A stretch of 64,000 nt of DNA from a virus. The position numbers and the translations under genes were made by a program. Positions within the stretch are counted from its first letter, which is position 1, and each line of letters begins with the position of its first letter. The stretch lies in the IMG/VR virus record IMGVR_UViG_3300034024_000020, positions 1 through 64,000 of that record, one strand, 5' to 3'. A model generated the notes under the pieces. That model was not told the origin of the DNA, did no database searches, and saw only the letters and a program-made list of their open reading frames with translations. This document shows positions 1-59,740 of this stretch, in pieces.

Positions 1-16
1 GCTAAGGTTTCTGGCC

Positions 17-31
17 GTTCCGGTTTTGTTC
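17..31. promoter_or_regulatory. Alphaproteobacterial LexA (SOS) box GTTC-N7-GTTC
   Basis: GTTC cggtttt GTTC matches the alphaproteobacterial LexA consensus exactly. Confidence 0.55.
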
Positions 32-240
32 CGGGGCGGCCGGACTTCCGGCCCCGCCGCCGCAGGCCGGGCCTCCCTAGAACTTAAATAGCACCACCTA
101 ATAACGCTGTCAAGCGAAAAGATTGCTTGACATAACTTTTTTCACCTAAGCAGAATATAGCACCTAGCGCCCGTTGCTCGCACTCGCTATTAAGATGGAG
201 CGGCGCACCCAGCCGCCACTAAACCAAAACGAGGTAAGTA

Positions 241-963
241 ATGGCAAAGAAAAAGTTTTTCCTAATCGCAGACACCGAAACAACTCAGACAGACAAGGTT
301 GCCGATATTGGCCTTGTTGTTTGCGATAAGCAGGGAAACATTCACCACGAAATCGGAATACTTGTCGGGGACTTCTTTTCCGACAGGGAAAACCACCCGC
401 TCTTTCATATTTACGGCGATAAGGGAGACATATTCAGTAAAGCAAGGCTTCCGGCCCGTTATCAGGCTTATGAGAACATGCTACAGGACGGAAGGCGCTA
501 TCTCGCCAGCGTCGGGGCAGTAAATCGCTGGCTTGCTAGGGCTAACGCCAAGTATCAGCCGGTTTTGACCGCCTATAACTTGGCTTTCGACAGGTCAAAA
601 TGCGCGAATAGTGGTATTGACTTGGATATGTTCGATCAAAGCTTCTGCCTCTGGCACGCTGCCGCTGAAAAGTGGGGACATACTAAGGCTTATAAGAACT
701 TTGTTCTGCAAAATCACTTTTTCGGGAACCGGACGGCTAAGGGTCATATGGGATACCAGACAAAGGCCGATTGCATGGCGAAATTCGTTCTTAACAATCC
801 CGGTTTGATTGACGAGCCGCATACGGCTTTGGAGGATGCTAGGGATTATGAGCGGCCTATTCTTGCGGCTTTGGTAAAGAATACTCCCGTCGCACAGTAT
901 ATGAACCCGAAAGCCTACAGCTATAGGGACTTTGTTGTTAGGGACCACTTCACGGCCATCTAA
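241..963 (+). CDS. DEDD/DnaQ-like 3'-5' exonuclease
   Basis: DTET (Exo I), AYNLAFD (Exo II), HTALEDA (Exo III); GAGG RBS. Confidence 0.85.
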   Translation: MAKKKFFLIADTETTQTDKVADIGLVVCDKQGNIHHEIGILVGDFFSDRENHPLFHIYGDKGDIFSKARLPARYQAYENMLQDGRRYLASVGAVNRWLARANAKYQPVLTAYNLAFDRSKCANSGIDLDMFDQSFCLWHAAAEKWGHTKAYKNFVLQNHFFGNRTAKGHMGYQTKADCMAKFVLNNPGLIDEPHTALEDARDYERPILAALVKNTPVAQYMNPKAYSYRDFVVRDHFTAI

Positions 964-986
964 TCGCAAAAAAGTGAAAAAAGTTG

Positions 987-1015
987 TTGACGGGGGCAAA
1001 AACCCTCCCTAAGAC
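987..1015 (+). promoter_or_regulatory. sigma70-type promoter upstream of A2-like gene
   Basis: TTGACG-17 nt-TAAGAC with upstream A-tracts. Confidence 0.55.
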
Positions 1016-1068
1016 AGAGGAACGGCGGGGGGCTCATCCCCCGCCGACAACCGACGAAGGAAAATAAA

Positions 1069-1437
1069 ATGGCGACTGCCAAAACTCCGAATTTCACTCC
1101 CGATCAGGAAGCCTCGATCCGGGCCGCTTCCGAAGCCGGTCCCCTCAATCTCGACGTTGCCACCCGCCTCGGCGCGGAGATGGGCAAGTCCTATCGCTCG
1201 ATCGTCGCGAAAATCACCCGCATGGGGCTTCCCTACCAGTCGAAGCAGCCGACGACCAAGACCGGCTCGCCGGTCACGTCGAAGTCGAAGCTTCGTGACG
1301 CCATCGCCGCAATCGTCGGCGGCAATCTGGACGGCCTCGAAAAGGCCCCCAAGCCGGTGCTTCAGCGCCTCGCGAATTTCGTGGAGGACGCGGCGGCGAC
1401 CCTCGATGACGGGGAGGACGAAGCCGAAGCGGCCTAG
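1069..1437 (+). CDS. T5 A2-like pre-early DNA-binding protein
   Basis: MxxAKT..F start and RSIVAKI...YQ motif resemble T5 A2; good RBS; GC-rich codon usage. Confidence 0.65.
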   Translation: MATAKTPNFTPDQEASIRAASEAGPLNLDVATRLGAEMGKSYRSIVAKITRMGLPYQSKQPTTKTGSPVTSKSKLRDAIAAIVGGNLDGLEKAPKPVLQRLANFVEDAAATLDDGEDEAEAA

Positions 1438-1744
1438 CCGCTAGGGGGCGGCGGCATGGGTTCCTTAACCCTCGCCCGATAGGGCAACCGCCGTCCCCGC
1501 ATTTTTCTCTTGACAAGCCGCTAGGTTGGCGGTAATCATAAGGAACAGAGTTTCGGCCTCGCTTCGGCGGGGTCGGAACTTCGTTCCGACCGCGATTTTT
1601 GAGCGCGCTACTCCCATTATGACAGGTATTTTTCTTTTGTCAACCCCATCTTTTCTCTTGCGTGAAAGATTTTTTGCTGTAGAAGAGAGTTATCGGAAGC
1701 GGAAAGGAAAGGAACAGCCGGAACGCCAAGAAAGAGAACGCGGG

Positions 1745-2240
1745 ATACAATGCAGGCATGGAAGTATGGCTTAGGCTTGATCAGATGTGTTAACCTGCTG
1801 CGGTTGAATGGTTACTCTATAGGGGCCTCACCCTGAATAAAGTTGATGTGCCGTTGGCGGTTAGCCAAGCGTTATAATCAAGAAACCTAGATGGGAGGGG
1901 GTGGCCACCCCCTCCCATTGAAACCCCGAGATTATTTTTGTTAGGTAATATCCCAAACCCCTTGTGGGTCAAGTCTTAGCCAAGAGCGAAGGTTGCAACT
2001 GCGGGAGAAAAGCCTAACTGGGTCAAGCGCCTCTGACCGAGAAAAACTAGCGTTAACAGTTCTTTTGTCCGGAGTTTAGCTAATTCCGGTGGTTTGCACG
2101 ATAGCCCTCGGTTAATATCCGCGTATGGGACAAAAAACCAGAAGTATAGACCTAGATAGTGTTCGCCTTCGGACTTGTTCCAAAAGGGACCTTACTAAAT
2201 GCTAGGCTAGGGGTGGCAAAGGTATGACCCACCCTACTTA
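1745..2240 (+). ncRNA. Putative structured non-coding RNA (~500 nt)
   Basis: No ORF of 60 aa or more spans it; many hairpins (atgggagggggtggccaccccctcccat, ggtca/tgacc, ttttgtcc/ggacaaaa, cctag/ctagg, gggtgg/ccaccc). Strand assumed. Confidence 0.5.
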
Positions 2241-2341
2241 ACACAGGTTAGTCACTTTTCCCTTGACGGACCAAACTAATTTCCCTACCCTAGAGAGACA
2301 GAAGGACCGCTGACTTGGATCGGCGGTCGGACTTCCGACCG

Positions 2342-2427
2342 GAACAAAACGTGATCAAACCAGGAACAGGGCCAGGACGAAAGCAGAACAAAACGAGAAC
2401 AAACCGGGAACAGAACAAAACGAGAAC
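2342..2427. repeat. 11-bp-phased GAAC tandem array (overlapping LexA-type GAAC-N7-GAAC boxes)
   Basis: GAAC/GATC/GGAC at 2342, 2353, 2364, 2375, 2386, 2397, 2408, plus a second-phase pair at 2413 and 2424. Confidence 0.75.
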
Positions 2428-2467
2428 GAGCATGATATGTTATATCATCGCGCTATGCGCCGACGTA

Positions 2468-2526
2468 AGTAGTACGTCAACAACTATTTTTACATGCACC
2501 CAGTAGTACGTCAACAACTATTTTTA
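2468..2526. repeat. Direct repeat agtagtacgtcaacaactattttta x2
   Basis: Two exact ~25-nt copies; each reads AAAAATAGTTGTTGACG on the minus strand, like the -35 half of the phage promoter. Confidence 0.8.
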
Positions 2527-2848
2527 GTAGTTGGTCAATTAAGGTTAAATTCAGCAAAGCTTAAAATTTTTGCTGATTTCGCGTCAAAAGCCGCTTACTT
2601 TAAGTTTAGCAGAGTTTTCAGCATTTGTCAAGACTTATTTTAGCTTATGTTGACTTGATTGCCCCCGTTTGCTTTAAAGTGATTTTCGATCCGCGCGGCG
2701 AGGCTTTGGATGGGCAAATTAGGCATATCTTGCGCTCATTTGAAAAATTGCACCGAAATTATTTCGCAGCAAACCCCTCCTCCACATTTTTACAACTACC
2801 GTTTTTGCTATTAAGTACTTAATCAACTAGTACTAGGTCAACTGAATT

Positions 2849-2883
2849 TAGTTCTTGACAATTTGACCCGCTTTTGCTAAGAT
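2849..2883 (+). promoter_or_regulatory. First copy of the recurrent phage early promoter (TAGTTCTTGAC-N17-TATAAT-GGG family)
   Basis: TTGAC starts at 2855, 3089, 5471, 8444, 11351, 13005, 14779, 15491, 15916, 17536, 18436, 20983, 22196, 24650, 25561, 28775, 31829, 34436, 35562, 37242, 38966, 40297, 42646, 45154, 46815, 49284, 53522, 56559; minus-strand copies near 5396 and 24605. Confidence 0.9.
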
Positions 2884-4163
2884 GAAGGCTAAGGAGAGAA
2901 AGATGAGTCATATTTATTCAGCCCCTAACTCAGCAGAAGTTCTAGAAGGCTTACTTTATCACATGAATGATTATGATGACGAAGTAAAAGCTGCTCTAAA
3001 GCTAATATCCGAGCGACATGATGTGCTAAGAGACTTGGCAAACTTCTGGCGTTATGGATACCCCCACGAGAGAGACTGAATTTAGTTCTTGACTTTGCAA
3101 CCCAAAGTCTCTAAGATGGGTCTTAAGAACGGGAGAATAGGCAATGCAGGACCGATATAACGAAATCTATGCAGTAGGAAAAGAGCTAGGCTATAAGGCT
3201 ATGACTGCGCTCGATCAGATGCTGGTTGACACGATGGACAAGAGTGGGCTTACCGATGATAACGATCGGGATGCTTTCACTGAAGGCTTCTGGAATGGAA
3301 TTATATAATGGAATTCGTTGGTAACGGACTTGTATTTTTGTTCTCATGTGTCCTAATCTTCATAACCGTTGTGTTATGGGGATCAGTTGGGATGTCTTTC
3401 GCAGATAGTAAAGGCTGGAACTTCACGCGAATTGTAGCTTTCGTGGTAACCGCTATTCCGGCCACCTTAGGTGGATGGCTTATCTATCTTATGGGATTTT
3501 AAAATGAGCAGACTTCCATTAGTTGTTGTATTCTTGGCAGCATCAATTCTGCTGTTTATTATTAGTATAAATCATAATTCTATGGATGCTAGGATATTTT
3601 CTGCTATTACTCTATTTGCTGCTTTGGTAGCGGCTTTTAAAAAGGATAAAGAATAATGGGACTTTTTGAACTAGATAATATTGATGAGGTTACTGATCTC
3701 ATCGACCTAATTGAAGCTCACGGCGACGACCGTAAGTTCGCAGACCTTTATGAGCGACTCTGCGAGTATCGCGACGATTATGAGGATATGTAAATGATTG
3801 GTGTAATTGTATTCTTTTTAAGCCTTTTCGCAGTCATCTATCTTGAGTGGAGACTGTGGGAATGGGACACGGAAAGGTATGGACCAGATACTGCTCTTAA
3901 TCAGGCGTTTTTCTGGACAGCTACACTTGCAATTCCAATAATTGCAGCAGTCAACTTTTTCTATATGATAAGTATGATTTATGGCAAGATTAACATCCAA
4001 TGATGGGCTTAATAGGAATTGTGATGATCGCTGCCGGGCTAGCTATGATAGTAGAGGATAGACATGCCTACTATAGCTACTAAATTCGCTGTCTTCCATA
4101 GCATGAGTGACGAAGACCTTAATAACAAACCAGAAAACGCCTTTATAGGGATTTGTAACGAAG

Positions 4164-4961
4164 ATGTGGCCACTTTCCTTAAAGCGCGCGGGCTTGAACG
4201 AGACGATGTTAGAATATTCTGGGAGTGCTAAAAGGCCTCTCCGAATTGACAAGCTATTTGGCTCTGACGTAATTGATCGCAAATATGATATTGAAACGCA
4301 GCGGACTACATATAGGCTAGCGGACGGGCGAAAGTATCATCGTTATTATGACGAAGATCATTTCTATCCAAGCACCCAGCCAGCGCGCTCCGCGCGCAAG
4401 ACCAGTGTTGTGACGAATCGCTGTCCAGGATGTGGTTATTCTCCTTGTGAGTATAATTGCTACTCATATTATGAGGAAAATGGAGTCGATCTTTATAAGA
4501 GCACCCTAGGCTTCGATCATCTTTGCTCCCTAGGTAAATGTCGAACCTGTCGTCGCAAACCAGAAAAATGCCAATGTGGAGCTTATGTGAGCTTTGAGCT
4601 TCAGCGTACTAAAGAACGCCTGAGAGAACATGCTCGACTTAAACAAGCTCAGCTAGAGGCTAAAGCTGAAGCAGATCATATCTGCAATTTACTAGAGCAA
4701 ATCCGTCATAAGACAATCTCCAGCACGCATGACTCCATTCTCGATGATTTCGACCGTCGCTGGCGTGCTGAAATTGAGAAGAAGAATATTGGGCGCGTTG
4801 TTCAAGCTATAGCGCTTGAAATAGCTCGTATCACTGCTCAATATAGAGAAGCTTCTGCCATTCACGCTATGAGGGAATTTGAAACTCAAGGTCGTTTCAT
4901 TCAAGCTGTCTATGGCAAATCGTCTCTAGAAACAGAAATTGACGCTATTCTAGCATCGTAG
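4164..4961 (+). CDS. Hypothetical Cys-rich protein (start uncertain)
   Basis: Long ORF with CPGCGYSPC and CRTC...CQC motifs; followed by a terminator. Confidence 0.6.
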   Translation: MWPLSLKRAGLNETMLEYSGSAKRPLRIDKLFGSDVIDRKYDIETQRTTYRLADGRKYHRYYDEDHFYPSTQPARSARKTSVVTNRCPGCGYSPCEYNCYSYYEENGVDLYKSTLGFDHLCSLGKCRTCRRKPEKCQCGAYVSFELQRTKERLREHARLKQAQLEAKAEADHICNLLEQIRHKTISSTHDSILDDFDRRWRAEIEKKNIGRVVQAIALEIARITAQYREASAIHAMREFETQGRFIQAVYGKSSLETEIDAILAS

Positions 4962-5000
4962 AAAAAGGCTCTAGTAGAAAACCTACTAGAGCCTATTTTC
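4961..5000. terminator. Bidirectional intrinsic terminator
   Basis: aaaaaggctctagtag-aaaac-ctactagagcctatttt. Confidence 0.75.
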
Positions 5001-5197
5001 ATTTCTCGACGCCGCGCGCCTCCACCTTTCTAGAATTTCGGATAAATTGGCCCCATCCGAGAACGGATTATCAATCCATCCTTAGTCCATTAAAAATGCA
5101 TTAGTAAGCATATAAGTAATGGTCTGCTTTAGCAGACGCAATGCGATGAGGAGATTAAAAATTGGGCGCTGCCTACTTCGTAGATTAGCTTCCAATT

Positions 5198-5361
5198 TAG
5201 ATTGGTTGTACGATTAAGTAGCTTCGGGGTCATCTACTAAATCATATCTCAGATCGAGGCCAGGGAGCCTCCCTTGAATTCCGGCTCCCTGGATCTCAAT
5301 TCGATTAAGATTTAAGGTGACCCAATCCACTTAATCTTCAATTGACATCCAATCTGTAACT
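5198..5361 (-). ncRNA. Rod-shaped putative ncRNA transcribed leftwards
   Basis: Minus-strand promoter (TTGACT 5396-5391, TATTAT 5373-5368) followed by nested inverted repeats agattgg/ccaatct, gattaagt/acttaatc, gggtca/tgaccc, ccagggagcc/ggctccctgg. Confidence 0.55.
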
Positions 5362-6381
5362 AGTTACATAATATCACACCTTTTCCCAAAAGTCAAGAAC
5401 TTTTTTCGTGAGGTATGGAAAAGGCTAGCTCGATTGCAGCTGATTATTTGAGCATTCGCTTCGATAGTTCTTGACATAATGCCCGTTTTCGCATATAATG
5501 GGAGCTTAAGGAGAGAGAAATGGCCTTTGAAAATGTTAACCTTAAGCGCACCATGCCAGCTGGGTTCGAAGAGCGTATTAGGGATATCATCAATGCTGTT
5601 CCGGGTATGGAAGCTGAAGAGCTTTTGGACCTATATTTTGAGCACGCTAGGAAAAATTACACGGATATGAAGCAGATTGTAATTAACTGCAAGCTTCTAG
5701 CCGAATTGAAGAACGAAATGATGGAGAGAATGTCGTGAGTGATCTAGCTGGTTGGAGTGAAACTATCAAGCGAATTGGTGAAGATAGTCGCCTAAAAGAA
5801 TTGGCTGACGCTGCACAATTTCGCGAAGATATGATCGACATGCTAGCTCATGATCGGGAACAGTCGGCAGATATTCTGCTTAATACTTATGTTTGGGCTA
5901 TCAACGGAAGCTACGGTATGAACCCTATGGCTAGAGCTAAAGCACAATATGCGGATGCTGTTAGAGCTATTATTCTCGAAAGGATGAATTGATGAAGGTT
6001 TGGGTTGAAGGACAAGAGTCTATCGCTCTGCATGAGGATATTATTCGCCTCAATCAGGAGAATATTGAGCTTCGTGATGAAGTCCGAAAGTGGCAGGAAA
6101 TCTCTATGAAGATGACGGAAATGGCTGAGCGATTGGCTAATCTTCTTCTAGACTCGGTGGAGGAAGCACATGAGCTTCGCTGATGAACTTAATGAGGCCC
6201 TAGATGAAGTGGCGGGACGAGCTTCCAAGAATAATAGCCGAAAACCACGCGAGGAGACTCGCCTTAGCCCCATTGAGAGCAAAGTGGGACGCAGAAGCTG
6301 AGTTCAAGCGTAATGCTAGACGTAAGCTTGCTTCGCGCTTGGCGGAGATTGAATTGTCTCCAGAAGAAAGAGTTTATTTGA

Positions 6382-6750
6382 ATGAGTATTTGTCATGATT
6401 TTATGTGGCGACTAAGACGTTTCCTTGGAGTTCCGATGAGCGAGAGCGAAGCTTTGACTTCGCTCGTTTGCTTGGATATTGTAACCAACTATCACGATTG
6501 GACCTTGGAAGATAGATGTTATGGGTGTGAAATTCGCCCTACTAATTGGAATTCAAAGCTTCCTCTAGTCAAGGCTCGTAAGGGTGACATATTTTACTGT
6601 GAATGTAAGATTGGAAACATTCCGATCACTTCAGGCCAATTTAGGCGTATCTTTAATCTTTACAAGAAGCAATATGACGTAATAGAAAGAAAAGCTTTAA
6701 GTAAAGAATTTGACAAGACTGTGGATTTCCTGCTAGAGAGGCGTAAATGA
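6382..6750 (+). CDS. Hypothetical protein
   Basis: ORF coupled to its neighbours in an early operon. Confidence 0.6.
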   Translation: MSICHDFMWRLRRFLGVPMSESEALTSLVCLDIVTNYHDWTLEDRCYGCEIRPTNWNSKLPLVKARKGDIFYCECKIGNIPITSGQFRRIFNLYKKQYDVIERKALSKEFDKTVDFLLERRK

Positions 6751-7334
6751 TTATTGAAATGTTCGTAATCAGCTGTTTTATGATGGCTATAGGTGGCAGT
6801 GCTATTGCTACCGCAAATGTGGGTCATGAGCCAAAGAAGACAGAGCAGCTCATCTTTACGCCGCCCAGCGGCGGTTCCGCTGTCAAGAAAAAGCCCGTAA
6901 AGTACAGCGAGAAAGACCTTCTCGTCGCGCTAGTCATTGACGAAATTCGCAAAAATCCAAATCAGTGGAAGAGCGAAGAAGTCCATAAGAATCAGTGGAG
7001 GGGCTCTTACTATGAGACTCTAGCTGATCGCACAAATAAGATTGTCGTTCGGAGAAATCATTGCTGGCACATTGGCAGTGATCACAAGGACGACTGTTGG
7101 ATCAACGAGGTTCGCATTACTGGTAAGGACTTCCTTGAAATTAAGGAGGTCTTCGATCAGAAGAACCTCCGTGACGAAGTTGAGAGGCTTTCTCAGCGTC
7201 GCATTTCAAGGGAGCTACAAAATGAGACGGTCAACAACACAACGCCGCTTCTTAGCTATGAGGGAAGCAGCCTTGATGAAATTGAACTCTATACTAGACA
7301 GGCACTCCAGCCTATTTACAACAGAAGAACTTGA
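6747..7334 (+). CDS. Hypothetical protein with N-terminal membrane anchor
   Basis: ATGA overlap, GAGG RBS, hydrophobic N-terminus. Confidence 0.65.
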   Translation: MIIEMFVISCFMMAIGGSAIATANVGHEPKKTEQLIFTPPSGGSAVKKKPVKYSEKDLLVALVIDEIRKNPNQWKSEEVHKNQWRGSYYETLADRTNKIVVRRNHCWHIGSDHKDDCWINEVRITGKDFLEIKEVFDQKNLRDEVERLSQRRISRELQNETVNNTTPLLSYEGSSLDEIELYTRQALQPIYNRRT

Positions 7335-7702
7335 GTTCCTGAAAGGACATTTGGTATGACTGTAAAACGTGTGTATCATATTACAGCTGGCCATCGTGAA
7401 TTAACTTACGATGGTAAATTCCTCAGGATTGACGATAAAGTCAGTTTTGGAAACGCTTGGATTGATCAATTCATTGATGGCATCAATGAATTGAGAGCAG
7501 CCAGACAGAAGGACGAAATACGTGGCAGCTAAAAGATCTTTAACGGAGAGTATTAACGGAACCACACTCTTCATTGACCACGAAACTGTTCGCATTTTTA
7601 ATGGTAGAGAAATTACTCTATCCCTATACGGTATACATGCGAAACAATTTATGAATTTCGTAATTGAGGCACAAGCCTTCATCGAGGCGGAAAGAATTAG
7701 AA

Positions 7703-8116
7703 ATGCCAATTAAGATGTATTGTATCTTCTCGGAAGAGTCGGTACGAGCTATGCAAGGTAATAGAGGTAAGATGTGTGCTCAGGCTGGGCATGCATTTCT
7801 ACATTCTTATTGGGATAATATGGATCGTTTTAGTGAGTTTAATCTCAAAGACGATCCTGATGTTATCGATCATGCTATGCGTGTTCGCCAAGACTATGAA
7901 TTTGGTGATGACGCTCGCAAGATCACCTTAATCACTCCAACAACTGACGATCTTCGTCGGCTAGTAGAGAAATATCGTCCTATTACTGGTGTCACTCTCG
8001 TGGAAGATTGTGGATATACCGTAGTTGAGCCCGGCACGATTACCTGTGCTGGTATTGGACCCCTTCGTGACGAAGACAAGGACGATGAACTTAGAAGCCT
8101 AAGGATTTTCACGTGA
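7703..8116 (+). CDS. Peptidyl-tRNA hydrolase, PTH2 family
   Basis: GKMCAQAGHA and EDCGYT...PGTITCAGIGP motifs. Confidence 0.85.
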   Translation: MPIKMYCIFSEESVRAMQGNRGKMCAQAGHAFLHSYWDNMDRFSEFNLKDDPDVIDHAMRVRQDYEFGDDARKITLITPTTDDLRRLVEKYRPITGVTLVEDCGYTVVEPGTITCAGIGPLRDEDKDDELRSLRIFT

Positions 8117-8492
8117 TTGTATCCACCCTTGAAGTAGATCTAGGAAACAATTATACAGCTAAATGGCGTTCCGACAGGAATATGGTTGAACTTCTAAATG
8201 GACAGCGATCCATCGTCCTAGTTGAAGAGCGCGATCTAGAGCGTATGATGGCTCTCTTTAACGAAGGTCGTGCACTAGAGGAAGTTAGGAAAAGGCTTAA
8301 AGCATGAACATTATGATACTAGCAAAAGGCACAACGGAGTCATTGTAAGGGACGACGCAGAAGAGCCTTATGTTTCAATCATCAAGACGGAAGATGGTAG
8401 ATATCTTTTAACTACTGAATGCCAGTATTCACTTAAATAGTTCTTGACTTTGCGACCCAATCTCGCTATACTGGGGCAACAAAGGGCGAGAT

Positions 8493-8774
8493 ATGTATTA
8501 CACTTTTCGGATCAAGCAGGAAAATCCATTCCAACGGGTGGAAGTTGCTAAGTGGGACGAACACGACTCACATCCGCTAGAGGTTTACGAGGTTCTTCCC
8601 GAGGGTAGGCCGGGACGAGGTATGTGCTCGTGCCCGGCTTACGTTGTTTGTAAGCATACAAAAGCAGTTCTAGAAGCTCGAAAAGATGGAAAGATCAAAG
8701 AGCTCTGGAATTGGTATTGGGACGAGAAATTGGGTTGGCAAAGGACAAAGGATATTCAATATGCTAGTGATTGA
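8493..8774 (+). CDS. SWIM-type zinc-finger protein
   Basis: CSCPAYVVCKH motif; follows the promoter at 8444. Confidence 0.65.
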   Translation: MYYTFRIKQENPFQRVEVAKWDEHDSHPLEVYEVLPEGRPGRGMCSCPAYVVCKHTKAVLEARKDGKIKELWNWYWDEKLGWQRTKDIQYASD

Positions 8775-9524
8775 TCCACCAAGTGGCTGGAAGTATGGGT
8801 TTCCTAAGCCTTATGACAATCCTAATAAGATAGAAGCTAATCTGTGGCTGGCTTTGAATGGCTATCCGCTAGACGAAGTTCGATATTGGGTTGAAGCTAG
8901 AGGCGGTGTGCCTTGCAGGTTTTGGGAGCACAGAGATGCAACTGACGTGTGAAGTTTGCAAAGAAAACGAAGCTATCGGTGTGGCATCTTCGTGCCTAGG
9001 CCCAATGTCTAACGCATATTGTAAGCGTTGTCTTGAACATCAAGCTGAGCCTCTGTGGATGTTTGAATGCACATTAGAGGAAGTTGGCGAAGAGGTTGCT
9101 GAGTGGGTCAAGCAGCTTACGACTTATATAGACGGTACCTATGTTACTTGGGATGAGTTTGCAAATGCTCGACGGAATGACGGTGGAGATACTATCTAAC
9201 GGTTTCATTGGCGGAGCAACGCTAGAAACTGACGGATACTATGTCCTAGTTATAAACAGAGAATTTGGTCCTTTCGAAGAGGATGAGTTACAGCTTATTG
9301 GAAATCCCTACCCGGAGATGGAAAATGGATAAGTGGTACCCTGGCAAGAAACCAGATAGATTCGAACTTCTAGAGATGGAAAATGCTAGACTTAAAGCAG
9401 AGTTGGCCAGGTGTCAAAAGAGACTTCTTGAATATAGCTGGCAGGTAAATCCAGATCGAAGCGGGGGTCAATTTGACTACCGTGATTATGAGCAACTAGA
9501 ACGTGGTAGACAAGGAATTTTTGG

Positions 9525-9881
9525 ATGAGTGGATTTGGTGGTTTCATTATGGGAGCCGGTGTTGTAATCTTTGTGGCGGCAATGTTGTCGGGTGGCGAAC
9601 CCGAAGCTAAGGCCGTTGATGGCAAACCTAAAGTCGTAACTGTTACAAAAGTGGTCGAGAAGAAGATTCCCTTCGACCGGGCTGGACGTTGTATGAGCCT
9701 ACAAGAAAAGGGCGAGGTTCAAGCTGTTGCCGCATATGAGGGTGATAGGAATAGTAGTCTAGTTACCTTTAAAATGTCTAATGGATTTACGCGAGTTTGT
9801 GAATTTAAAGGTACAGACTATAGGTCCAATCTTAAAGAGGGAATGGTTCTAGTTACTCGTGGAGGTGAAAGGATTCTCTAA
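9525..9881 (+). CDS. Hypothetical membrane-anchored protein
   Basis: N-terminal TM segment; coupled ORF. Confidence 0.6.
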   Translation: MSGFGGFIMGAGVVIFVAAMLSGGEPEAKAVDGKPKVVTVTKVVEKKIPFDRAGRCMSLQEKGEVQAVAAYEGDRNSSLVTFKMSNGFTRVCEFKGTDYRSNLKEGMVLVTRGGERIL

Positions 9882-10192
9882 TGAAAAAGGTTTATATCGT
9901 TCGAAAGAATGGAGACTTCACCGAGGGGCGGGGCCCTATGAATTATCATAGGACCTTCTCTAATGGTCCTGAAGCTGTACGATATGTTCAAGCGCAGGAG
10001 GGTATCTTCGGCAGCCCTCAGCATGTAGAGCTTGATAAATATGGCCATTATGCTTATGCTAATGGTTATAGCATTGATGAAGAGTTCGTTTACGAGTCTG
10101 CTGGTCAGGCTATTGATGAAGCTGAAGAGAAAGAGCGCGTAAAGGCTCTTAACAAACTAACTGCACGCGAAAGGAAGTTGCTAGGACTATGA
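9881..10192 (+). CDS. Hypothetical phage protein
   Basis: TAATG coupling; ends in an ALNKLT.RERKLLGL tail like the tail of the ORF ending at 11180. Confidence 0.65.
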   Translation: MKKVYIVRKNGDFTEGRGPMNYHRTFSNGPEAVRYVQAQEGIFGSPQHVELDKYGHYAYANGYSIDEEFVYESAGQAIDEAEEKERVKALNKLTARERKLLGL

Positions 10193-10470
10193 CACCAGAA
10201 CAAGAAAAACTGTATTACGAGGCTTTGCTAGAACTAGCTGACCGTTATGAAGCTATGATCGTTGACGAAGACGCTGAGGAAGACAATGATGACATTCTAG
10301 AATTTATTGATCTTTTCTACGAAAAGGCTCTACAGCGTTATCCTCTGCTTAAGCTTAATCGTTGGCTTGGATATATTCAAGGCGTTCTTATTGAGCGTGA
10401 ATTTACGACTGTTGAGGAAGAGCGTAACTTCACTCGTCCATTGTTCCGTCCTATTGATTTCGAGGGTTAA
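10189..10470 (+). CDS. Hypothetical phage protein
   Basis: KLNRWLGYIQG...EERNFTRPLF motif, recurrent in phage hypotheticals. Confidence 0.65.
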   Translation: MTPEQEKLYYEALLELADRYEAMIVDEDAEEDNDDILEFIDLFYEKALQRYPLLKLNRWLGYIQGVLIEREFTTVEEERNFTRPLFRPIDFEG

Positions 10471-11441: not shown

Positions 11442-11762
11442 ATGGCTTATACAGATGGACAGATTACTGAGCTTAAGGCAATTGAAGGTCTTAATTTCGA
11501 CAAGGCTCAGACTTTTGCTGACAAACACGGACTAAAGGTACGTAGCGTTATTGCTAAGGCTCGTGCTCTCGATATTCCCTACCAGTCCAAGGTTCCTGGG
11601 CAGAAGAAGGCTTCAGCAGCTAATGTTCGTCGTAAGTCGGATATTGCTAAGGCGATTACCGAATTGCTCGATATTGTGGTTCCTTCTCTTGACAAGCTTA
11701 CGCTGAAGGACCTTGAGATTGTTGAGGCTCGCCTCGAAGAGCTTCTTATTAAGGAAGACTAA
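11442..11762 (+). CDS. A2/D5-like DNA-binding protein paralog
   Basis: RSVIAKAR...PYQSK motif shared with 1069-1437. Confidence 0.7.
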   Translation: MAYTDGQITELKAIEGLNFDKAQTFADKHGLKVRSVIAKARALDIPYQSKVPGQKKASAANVRRKSDIAKAITELLDIVVPSLDKLTLKDLEIVEARLEELLIKED

Positions 11763-13523: not shown

Positions 13524-13838
13524 ATGAGTTATACAGAGGAACTGACTAAATCAGTCATAGAAGAGTACGAAGCTGACCCGTCTAGGGAGACAGTTGATCG
13601 TATTGCCGAAAGAATTGGAAAGACAACAAGGTCGGTTATTGCTAAGCTTGCAGCAGCGGGAGTTTATCAAACCCCGCAGCGCACTACGAAAACTGGCGAA
13701 CCGATCGTCAAGAAAGAAACTCTAGTCGAAGAGATCGAAGGGTGGCTGGAAATAGAATGCCCCACCCTAGTTAAAACTGGTAAAGAAGATTTAAAACGCG
13801 TTCATAAAGTACTACAGGAGATTTTCGTTGACGCCTGA
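13524..13838 (+). CDS. A2/D5-like DNA-binding protein paralog
   Basis: RSVIAKL...YQ...TTKTGEP motif shared with 1069-1437. Confidence 0.75.
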   Translation: MSYTEELTKSVIEEYEADPSRETVDRIAERIGKTTRSVIAKLAAAGVYQTPQRTTKTGEPIVKKETLVEEIEGWLEIECPTLVKTGKEDLKRVHKVLQEIFVDA

Positions 13839-25894: not shown

Positions 25895-26222
25895 ATAGTC
25901 GTTGACGACTGTAGTAAAAGCCGGAGGATACGCGGGTTCAACTCCCGCCACCTCCACCAAAACAAGACCGCCTTTTGCGCAGAGGGTAGCTAGGTTGGCA
26001 GGGTGGCTCGCGCAGCTGTCCGACAGGTTCGAGTCCTGAGTGTCTTGTTTTGATGGGGGTGAACTGGGATCGACCGAGGGCGGAATAAGCAATCTGAGAC
26101 TATTGACTGGCAAAGTGCCATAAGTAAAGGCAAATGATAATGAGCCTATGGAGGAAATGGAGCTTCGCCTAGCGGCGTAAGCTCTCTCCGGGGACTGGCC
26201 CACCTGTCACAACAACGGGCCA
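25895..26222 (+). ncRNA. ssrA: Two-piece (circularly permuted) tmRNA
   Basis: Acceptor piece ends gcggg-ttcaact-cccgc-cacctcc-a-CCA (25959); coding piece starts GGGGGTG (26055) giving G3.U70; tag ANDNEPMEEMELRLAA* at 26130-26180. Confidence 0.9.
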
Positions 26223-46849: not shown

Positions 46850-47715
46850 TCAAAACGACGGAAATAACAAGTTTGGCCGTATGGGGTCATTAGGGTAAGG
46901 GTGGCGACACCCCCAAAGCAGGGAAGCTTACATACCTGCGCTCGCAAGAGTCCATCTATACAAGCCTACATCACGCCCGAAAGGGTGTCTTCGTGAAGAG
47001 CGGAGATAGTCGTGAAGTGAGGTTGAGGAAAGAATTCTGGTCGATGTCCCGCAAGGAAGGCAGGCTGGAGAAGAACGGGGTAGTAGCCGTCTCTCAGCAC
47101 ACTAAACTCGCGAACGATGATGGTAAATGGTAGTGCCATTGTTCGATGCTTAGCGGCAAAGGGCTTCGGTGCAATTCAAACGGTTGGTGGGAGTCACACC
47201 CACGTAGATCGTGAAGAATGATTGAGTAGGTTTAGCAGACCAAAAGATAGCATAGGCGTGTTGTATTTCGTAGATTAATAGTCTGCGAAGCGACAGAGGT
47301 AGCACGTCTTGGTAAGTTAATGCAATTTGTTCAATGGTAGAACATTAGTCTATGAAACTGAGAGTGTTGGTTCGATTCCAACATTGCAAGCTATAAAAAC
47401 GCAAAGACTACCTCGGTATACAGCGAAAGTCATCTAATGCCGGACTAAAGAATTCGGCCTAGGAAAGCTCGCAAGGCAGACCTAGTTCATGGTAGATCGC
47501 TCATAAATCTCTTAGCGGAGGTTGAACGGCTCGCAAGGTCGGTGGGAAGGAAATCGTGGAGTAGTTGTATATGTCACCGCAAAAGCTAGCGGTATATCAA
47601 ATGAGCGATGATGTTCATTAGTGGCAACCCTGCCTCTGGAAACCTGATTAAGCACCTCGCAAAAGGTCCGCGTACGGTCAGAAGATTGAACAATTAATAG
47701 GTGTATTCTCAGCCT
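46850..47715 (+). ncRNA. GOLLD-like large ncRNA (~865 nt)
   Basis: Own promoter (46815); ORF-free; many GCAA/GAAA-capped hairpins; GAGTAG..AAAG..GGCGTGTTGTATT segment and 3' end GGTGTATTCTCAGCCT recalled as GOLLD-like; lies inside a phage tRNA array. Confidence 0.75.
47321..47388 (+). tRNA. tRNA-like element embedded in the GOLLD-like RNA, anticodon ATG
   Basis: tgcaat/attgca; gttc/gaac D-stem; ttagt-ctATGaa-actga; gttgg-ttcgatt-ccaac; no CCA. Confidence 0.7.
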
Positions 47716-58327: not shown

Positions 58328-59740
58328 GTGAACCTAGCTAGCGCACTTATAAAACAAGTATTGGAGCAAGAAGACTTTGATACTTGGTCAAATGTGCGTA
58401 AGCATTATCTGCCTAGTGAGTATCATCAACTATTTGACATAATCAGCAAACACACTGATTCCTATCACAAGCTACCAACGCTAGAGGAATTGAAGTTTGA
58501 AATACGTGATAACGCTACGCTCGAAAAGGTTTATGCACTAGAAACAGGTGAGGAGATAGAGGCTGAGCCCTTTCTTCTCTTAGACTACTTAAAAAATGAG
58601 TACACTCAAAAGGAGTTCTTATTTCAAGTAGATAGACTTATTGATAGGTCTTTAGCTTTTGAAACAGCCGAAGAGACCATCAAGTCTATTCAAGAGATTG
58701 CTATCGACCTTGAGAATAAGGTTGATATTACTGATCCTGCTGAAAACATGCAGAAGATCAGCTTATTTGAAAGTGACGAAGACCTAGGAGCTCGGGTAAC
58801 TCTAGGTCTTAATTCCGATTTCGATAGTCAGTATCCTATTGCGGTTACTGACTACATCATGCTTGGTGGGCCTAAGGGTGCTGGTAAGTCTATTACATGT
58901 AACAATGTAGGTAGGCACATAATCGAAGTCAAGCAGAAAGTAGCACTTTACTTCTCTATTGAGATGGAGGCGATTGAGGTATTGCAGCGTGATGCTGCTC
59001 TAGCCACAAAGATTCCTTTCAACAAGATTAGAAATAAGAACCTATCAGTAGTAGAATGGGAAAAGATCGTCGAGTACTGGGGTACTCGATTTAAGAATTC
59101 AGAAGGTCACGTAGCTGCTTACAAGCAGCATCATGATTTCAACAGATTCCACACAGCTATTTCCAAAGAAGAGCTGTCTGGTGCCTATCTTGATATCATC
59201 TATGATCCTAATCTAACCTTGACTCGTATTAGAAACGAGGTCCAGAAAAGATTGGCTCAAGGTGTCGAAATTGGCATCATTATTGTAGACTATATCAACC
59301 AGGTGAAACTGAATGACAACAGTAAAGTTGGTGATAAACAGTATGAGTGGAAAGAGCAGATCAACATCAGTACTGGTTTAAGACGTTTGGCACAGGAGCT
59401 AAGAATTCCTGTATTCAGTCCTTACCAAATGGATGCCGATGGAAAAGCAAGATTTGCTCGGGGTATCCTTGATGCGCCGACCGTCGTAATTAAGCTCATA
59501 AAGTTTCCGCAAGCGGACGCAATCATGGGCTTTGAAATTGAAAAGATGCGACACGCTCCTGATGAACTCGTAGTTATCTCTAGAATGGACTGGAATTGCT
59601 TACAGATCGGACCAGAGAATGGGGAATTACCCGAGCCTGAAGTAGAAGAGGATGAACATCCTAAAGCTACTTTTGGAAGGAAGAAGCAAAGTAGTAGCAA
59701 ACCAACTGGTGAAAGCATCTATGACGATCCACCCTTCTAG
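58328..59740 (+). CDS. DnaB-like replicative helicase
   Basis: Walker A GPKGAGKS, FSIEM, IVDY. Confidence 0.88.
   Translation: MNLASALIKQVLEQEDFDTWSNVRKHYLPSEYHQLFDIISKHTDSYHKLPTLEELKFEIRDNATLEKVYALETGEEIEAEPFLLLDYLKNEYTQKEFLFQVDRLIDRSLAFETAEETIKSIQEIAIDLENKVDITDPAENMQKISLFESDEDLGARVTLGLNSDFDSQYPIAVTDYIMLGGPKGAGKSITCNNVGRHIIEVKQKVALYFSIEMEAIEVLQRDAALATKIPFNKIRNKNLSVVEWEKIVEYWGTRFKNSEGHVAAYKQHHDFNRFHTAISKEELSGAYLDIIYDPNLTLTRIRNEVQKRLAQGVEIGIIIVDYINQVKLNDNSKVGDKQYEWKEQINISTGLRRLAQELRIPVFSPYQMDADGKARFARGILDAPTVVIKLIKFPQADAIMGFEIEKMRHAPDELVVISRMDWNCLQIGPENGELPEPEVEEDEHPKATFGRKKQSSSKPTGESIYDDPPF

Follow-up and report, generated by a model that had tools for sequence, protein, structure and literature searches.

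An uncultured phage carries an array of GAAC tetramers at exact 11-bp steps, placed at the inner edge of a GC-rich module that resembles the pre-early DNA of T5. We read this array, tentatively and at somewhat less than an even chance, as a set of docking sites for a host protein of the LexA type, which would form a nucleoprotein block at the boundary between pre-early and early DNA. The window, that is, the whole stretch of DNA that was analysed, comprised bases 1-64000 of a 115,703-bp IMG/VR virus record; positions given as genome positions refer to the whole record.

The array consists of two registers next to a palindrome, as follows.

2322-2340, no strand assigned: GC-rich palindrome or hairpin adjoining the array (stem GGTCGG, loop ACTT), of the same family as the palindromes of the isolated boxes described below.
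2342-2411, plus strand: main register of the array, seven tetramers at exact 11-bp steps (five GAAC, one GATC and one GGAC).
2413-2427, plus strand: second register, a perfect GAAC-N7-GAAC box with GAAC at 2413 and 2424, shifted by 5 nt.

Read directly from position 2341, the 11-nt units are gGAACaaaacg, tGATCaaacca, gGAACagggcc, aGGACgaaagc, aGAACaaaacg, aGAACaaaccg and gGAACa. The exact GAAC tetramers of the main register start at 2342, 2364, 2386, 2397 and 2408, and those with one mismatch at 2353 (GATC) and 2375 (GGAC). Perfect GAAC-N7-GAAC boxes start at 2386, 2397 and 2413, and there are four further boxes with one mismatch. On the minus strand, the main register appears as GTTC-N7-GTTC boxes with T-rich spacers. 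The nine half-sites leave room for about four to five dimers, three of which would lie on one face of the DNA at 22-bp steps. Thus, the seven GAAC-like tetramers at 11-bp spacing and the additional GAAC-N7-GAAC pair reported in the first-pass annotation were correct in both coordinates and description.

The array is real and well beyond chance. Five exact GAAC per seven phased slots were found at the 11-bp step only, steps of 9, 10, 12 and 13 giving three or fewer, and the maximum among shuffled sequences was three exact GAAC (200 Markov shuffles of the whole genome and 20,000 that preserved the local A-rich composition). Further, the 64-kb window contains 8 perfect boxes compared with 2.07 expected, a number reached by 0 of 100 shuffles. 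Tandem Repeats Finder detected periods of 11, 16 and 22. The box at 2413-2427 is identical to that at 2386-2400, and the 16-nt duplication within the right half of the array (2386-2427) is recent; the left half is degenerate. Such a combination of a decayed left half and a recently duplicated right half is as in neutrally evolving tandem repeats. Two open frames of 47 and 63 aa across the array were rejected as repeat artefacts, being without a ribosome-binding site and not kept in the related locus L352. The GGAAC words were also considered as -35 boxes for ECF sigma factors and rejected, there being no partner -10 at the proper spacing. Searching cultured phages by blastn, with 1-6000 and with the array as queries, yielded no useful match; weak matches to HTVC120P and WyrdV1 were short A-rich alignments.

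As the first-pass annotation had proposed, the phage is T5-like, judged from its DNA polymerase, which is ~45% identical to those of T5-like phages (Demerecviridae). The last 173 nt of the record (genome 115531-115703) repeat the first 173 (1-173), except for a flipped hairpin loop (ACTT/AAGT). Because of this end overlap, the assembly closes on itself and position 1 is arbitrary; the overlap with its flipped loop is probably the reason for the 'linear' call in IMG/VR. The structural genes and the terminase are on the minus strand up to ~108.4 kb (terL at genome 105630-106970). From there a module of ~9.5 kb extends across the junction to 2.43 kb; it carries small plus-strand genes and has a GC content of 53-58%, versus about 40-45% elsewhere. 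This module lies between the terminase and the early genes, accounts for ~8% of the genome, and contains a HAD phosphatase that resembles T5 dmp (E 9e-11; Pfam HAD). Besides the array, the following features lie at or near its inner end.

17-31, plus strand: isolated GTTC-N7-GTTC box belonging to a composite element; owing to the 173-nt overlap at the record end, it is one and the same as the box at genome 115547.
35-53, no strand assigned: palindrome of this composite element, whose loop is ACTT at this position and AAGT at the record end.
241-963, plus strand: ORF1 (240 aa), from a very abundant uncultured family, used as the anchor for finding relatives.
1069-1437, plus strand: last protein gene before the array, from a multi-copy small-protein family with a full-length alignment to the T5 pre-early protein A2 (moderate support).
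1440-2880, no strand assigned: ~1.4 kb without a credible protein gene, in which both strands have promoter-like and terminator-like sites and in which the array and the GC drop are found.
2468-2526, minus strand: two exact 25-nt repeats with leftward promoter-like hexamers aimed into the array.

The alignment of the A2-like family with T5 A2 had an hhalign E of 1.7e-4 and a probability of 50% over 105 columns, and further members of the family are encoded at 11490-11696 and 13527-13820 in the window. Because of its place, its relative size and its dmp-like and A2-like marker genes, the correspondence of the module to the terminal-repeat/pre-early DNA of T5 is well supported by synteny. The motifs DTETT ... 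HTALEDA of ORF1 were read as DEDDh exonuclease-like. The replication genes lie at 50-63 kb, including a DnaB-like helicase (58328-59740). All 35 tRNA genes of the window are in DNA predicted to enter after the module; such a confinement of tRNA genes to later DNA, beside a GC-rich pre-early module, fits a module composition tuned to a GC-rich host. A GOLLD RNA was detected within the tRNA region at 47251-47715 (Rfam, 156.9 bits; gathering score 150).

The GC content drops at ~2430, and the array lies exactly at the inner edge of the module, between rightward pre-early transcription and the leftward promoter-like sites. Beyond the drop, the zone has a GC content of 37-38% and contains promoter-like sites; a leftward terminator-like site is located at 2028-2012. 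The earlier suggestion that the array marks the boundary of first-step transfer therefore holds for its placement, which is well supported by synteny, and the two-step transfer itself is something we infer from the likeness of the module to T5. In the same untranslated stretch, the segment 1509-1600 contains a promoter-like site with a strong T-run hairpin (GGTCGGAAC ttc GTTCCGACC) within ~60 nt after it and is possibly a small RNA gene, and a perfect 28-bp palindrome is present at 1891-1918.

Since a terminal repeat of the T5 type would end at the change in base composition where the array lies, the array might be a packaging or boundary element at which terminase binds the edge of a long terminal repeat. 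Short-repeat arrays adjoin the terminal repeat of T7, and in three or four lineages of other viral contigs we found similar arrays that precede terS/terL by 100-900 nt. However, terL of this phage is ~11 kb from the array, across the module, and the other module boundary (~108.4-108.7 kb) has no such array. Further, the cultured phages with the closest TerL (~60% identical) to the contigs of the podovirus L020 family have no arrays upstream of terS. We consider a packaging role highly improbable.

Another function suggested by this position is that of iterons in a replication origin, with an AT-rich unwinding zone alongside and a host or phage initiator as the reader, as in P4 ori/crr or plasmids. 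The 11-bp repeats adjoin the 37-38% GC zone with its promoter-like sites, and DnaA boxes occupy the equivalent slot in the relative L193 (see below). In P4 ori/crr, the type I iterons are short GAACA-containing direct repeats in helical phase. However, the array does not contain the P4 octamer TGTTCACC, which has one chance match in the 64-kb window, and there is no initiator gene nearby, such as an alpha-type primase-helicase gene, the replication genes being at 50-63 kb. The DnaA box TTWTNCACA was not found in 1-3200. Further, an origin would not usually have additional boxes dispersed over other intergenic sites, as is the case here with four of them, and the T5 origins have been placed close to the middle of the genome (cited in bioRxiv 10.1101/866236). 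An origin is thus a doubtful explanation, to which we assign a small probability.

In the whole genome, we found five elements in which a GTTC-N7-GTTC box is combined with a GC-rich palindrome, all inside the GC-rich module. Isolated boxes with T-rich spacers occur at genome 110978, 111797, 112900 and 115547; the last is identical with the perfect box that had been noticed at 17-31, which is present in the GTTC-N7-GTTC orientation. A GC-rich 16-bp palindrome comes 6 nt after each isolated box, and beyond it lies a reverse and forward promoter-like pair (GTCAAG ... CTTGAC). The array is an inverted copy of this composite element, with the box part multiplied and placed 1 nt from the palindrome. 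When the five copies were aligned, the tetramers and the palindrome were conserved and the flanks had diverged; the palindrome arms showed compensatory changes (G:C, T:A, C:G), and the palindromes fold as modest hairpins. The ~9.5-kb module contains seven perfect boxes, compared with five (GAAC-N7-GAAC or GTTC-N7-GTTC) in the remaining 106 kb, and of these five, one alone has a spacer ending in (A/T)T.

Relative to the nearby transcription, every one of the five copies has its GTTC strand ahead of the hairpin. This order would fit an array that has no function of its own at the DNA level and arose by slippage expansion of a U-rich tract before a terminator-like hairpin, or that is part of a non-coding RNA transcribed from the leftward promoters. 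The recent duplication beside decayed units and the leftward terminator-like site at 2028-2012 agree with such an origin. However, the tetramers and the 11-bp phase are kept while the spacers vary, and a phased array recurs in the distant L352 with a different palindrome and different spacers; in addition, an Rfam search of 1-6000 matched no family. An explanation by slippage or RNA is, in our estimate, improbable, if slightly less so than an origin.

We then compared the boxes with known binding sites. ChIP-supported LexA boxes of Caulobacter consist of GTTC, a T-rich spacer mostly ending in (A/T)T, and GTTC (PMC12700426 S3A). The phage boxes match these SOS boxes, spacer included, and the assignment of an alphaproteobacterial LexA-type motif was thus upheld: all seven perfect module boxes fit GTTC-N5-WT-GTTC, as compared by eye with PMC12700426 S3A, and the phage box GTTCCGCTTTTGTTC is one spacer base apart from the published Caulobacter box GTTCCACTTTTGTTC. 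A scan of bacterial genomes located the triple phased pattern in an alphaproteobacterial MAG, where it precedes recA (Pfam RecA 1e-146) by 15 nt, and triple phased GAAC over a TTGACA promoter was found in ~10 genomes of Mesorhizobium, Aminobacter and Agrobacterium. Because of these cases, stacked 11-bp GAAC repeats appear to be a natural, though rare, form of SOS operator in Alphaproteobacteria. The array shares with alphaproteobacterial SOS boxes the direct-repeat half-sites, the 7-nt T-rich spacer ending in (A/T)T and the 11-bp stacking. It differs from them in lying off a promoter, in having nine half-sites rather than two or three, in belonging to a virulent-type phage and in the adjoining palindrome.

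Several findings count against the LexA reading. The boxes are not in an operator position; they precede hairpins, and the promoter-like hexamers lie 40-100 nt away. GAAC boxes are missing from most relatives. Further, triple boxes are rare in Alphaproteobacteria: 301 genomes gave 17 matches versus 13 for the reversed control, which is no clear excess, and the triple phased pattern also occurs in many other phyla, partly as coding repeats. As a separate observation, in L272 (4223-4290) and ~10 other Phyllobacteriaceae loci, a conserved TTGACA promoter is overlapped by three phased GAAC boxes and fronts a very short open frame of <30 codons whose first residues are hydrophobic, which looks like an SOS-controlled small membrane peptide.

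A permuted tmRNA is encoded at 25897-26180 in the window (RF04321, 69.7 bits), with the tag peptide ANDNEPMEEMELRLAA predicted by ARAGORN. We take tags of the ANDN type, and likewise -35 hexamers of the form CTTGAC, to indicate Alphaproteobacteria. Permuted tmRNAs are known as well from some Betaproteobacteria and Cyanobacteria, groups in which LexA does not recognise GTTC. Thus, the permuted tmRNA, the ANDN-type tag and the CTTGAC hexamers point to an alphaproteobacterial host, none of them being decisive. The GC-rich pre-early module is a further indirect sign, and the host is the weakest link in the LexA reading.

To find relatives we used ORF1, which has ~2000 homologues; 80 viral and 80 metagenomic loci were fetched. 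Homologues in metagenomes were 63-75% identical, and none above 33% identity was found in cultured phages. As a single query against viral contigs, ORF1 gave no match, and an alignment query found the relatives. Many of the contigs stop within 600 nt past ORF1, and two relatives' records that are classed as having direct terminal repeats carry ORF1 once. Only ~6 of the ~160 related loci have any GAAC box, and relatives identified by TerL had no boxes. Most ORF1 relatives lack both a GC-rich module and GAAC boxes, so the array is not shared across the family. In many of them, the equivalent untranslated stretch has other short-period arrays.

In L352 (GC 52%), GAAC occurs at 542, 553, 586, 597, 608 and 619, sharing one 11-bp register and surrounding a palindrome, and the GC drop is marked by homologous 25-mer leftward promoter repeats, as in the window. 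Conservation of the phase, which the first-pass annotation had named as a check on its proposal, was thus seen in this locus, against the small number of loci with any box. In L147, the shared anchor palindrome precedes a single GAAC-N7-GAAC box, and L136 and L148 each have a single box ~20 nt after a promoter -10. In L193, the anchor is followed by four phased TTATCCACA DnaA boxes between two A2-like genes; these boxes are set at 11- and 22-bp steps (6965-7120) and are followed by four inverted DnaA-like AGTGGAAAAC repeats. Such a DnaA-box cluster was found in L193 only, among 80 loci. Since L352 and L147 carry GAAC boxes and L193 carries DnaA boxes, one slot appears to hold the boxes of different host proteins in different members, and the DnaA boxes of L193 point to host proteins as the readers. 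Repeats of the type CAAGTGCAAA, related to AGTGGAAAAC of L193, were also seen in L177, L196 and L204.

The same neighbourhoods raise the question of a phage-encoded reader. An A2-like gene lies directly upstream of the array, and in relatives the untranslated zone is surrounded by three or four A2-like paralogues, including one encoded on the other strand, so that paralogues flank the box arrays. The T5 record annotates A2 as a DNA-binding protein needed for second-step transfer. Together with the confinement of the boxes to the pre-early module, this suggests that the array and the isolated boxes might be sites for a pre-early DNA-binding protein, A2-like or other, which would organise the pre-early DNA or insulate it; in that case the boxes would resemble LexA sites by coincidence or mimicry. 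However, the motif RS-I/V-VAK of the A2-like proteins, a putative recognition helix, is nearly invariant across phages with GAAC arrays, DnaA arrays or no arrays, and the DnaA boxes in the slot of L193 argue for host proteins. We regard a phage protein as an unlikely reader.

The pattern GAACAAA-N4-GAACAAA-N4-GAAC was present in at least 119 unrelated viral contigs with a GC content of 26-58%, and so another binder is possible. Four contigs of 112-126 kb that matched the pattern were examined as candidate relatives of this phage and rejected. No protein family that might be a common binder joins this phage with the neighbourhoods of the 119 other loci, the few matches being weak or functionally unrelated. 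This argues against a phage-encoded reader and favours, without proving, a host-encoded one.

A docking array for host LexA has a close parallel in the injection stop signal (iss) region of T5. In the T5 record, the repeat spans 1-10219, with the injection stop signal annotated over its final kilobase. The iss region, which lies in the untranslated Repeat Region 3 of the left terminal repeat, contains eight DnaA boxes, paired in inverted repeats, and a model in which a host protein binds there was put forward by Davison (bioRxiv 10.1101/866236). The zone described here and the iss region are both rich in repeats and palindromes and both lie at the inner end of the pre-early DNA, before the early genes. 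They also share phased boxes of a type bound by a host DNA-binding protein, and L193 has DnaA boxes in the same slot. In contrast to T5, this phage has no sequence similarity to T5 in this region, no DnaA boxes in 1-3200 and no A1 homologue that we could see, and its motif is of the LexA type.

We propose that the docking protein is most probably the LexA of the presumed alphaproteobacterial host, of the type that reads GTTC-N7-GTTC. LexA of the uninfected cell would load onto the first-entering DNA and, on the array, build a nucleoprotein block at the pre-early/early boundary. For transcription, and perhaps also for DNA transfer, the block may be an insulator or a roadblock, and cleavage of LexA would dissolve it. 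The other role suggested in the first-pass annotation, that of a sink titrating host LexA, is unlikely for one infecting genome with ~9 sites.

The stop in T5 transfer after 8% of the genome has a mechanism that has been open since the 1960s, and to our knowledge the only sequence-based proposal for it is that host DnaA binds the iss boxes. It is conceivable, although we give the idea little probability, that T5-like phages generally mark the end of the first-injected DNA with phased sites for an abundant host protein, that this protein is swapped with the host, and that infection releases the brake. DnaA boxes would serve in T5 and L193, and LexA-type boxes here and in L352. In the phage described here, the pre-early attack on host DNA would activate RecA, LexA would be cleaved and the boundary block would dissolve. 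With phased DnaA boxes or phased LexA-type boxes in the same slot, docking of a host protein at this position becomes a testable general rule.

The array would also extend the list of host regulators co-opted by virulent phages. Sites for LexA are co-opted in GIL01, CTX and 186, and sites for Spo0A in phi29. CtrA sites are likewise used by alphaproteobacterial phages (PMC9437464). Common to these phages and the one described here is a genome with multiple sites for a host global regulator, predicted in the present case. In the other phages, the sites are at promoters and act in lysis-lysogeny decisions or lytic deferment, whereas here they form a promoter-distal phased array at a module boundary. 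Among the other phage loci, L123 (Pelagibacter phage HTVC120P), a T7-like pelagiphage, has dense repeats of the GTTGCCTGG type at 430-640, near the genome end.
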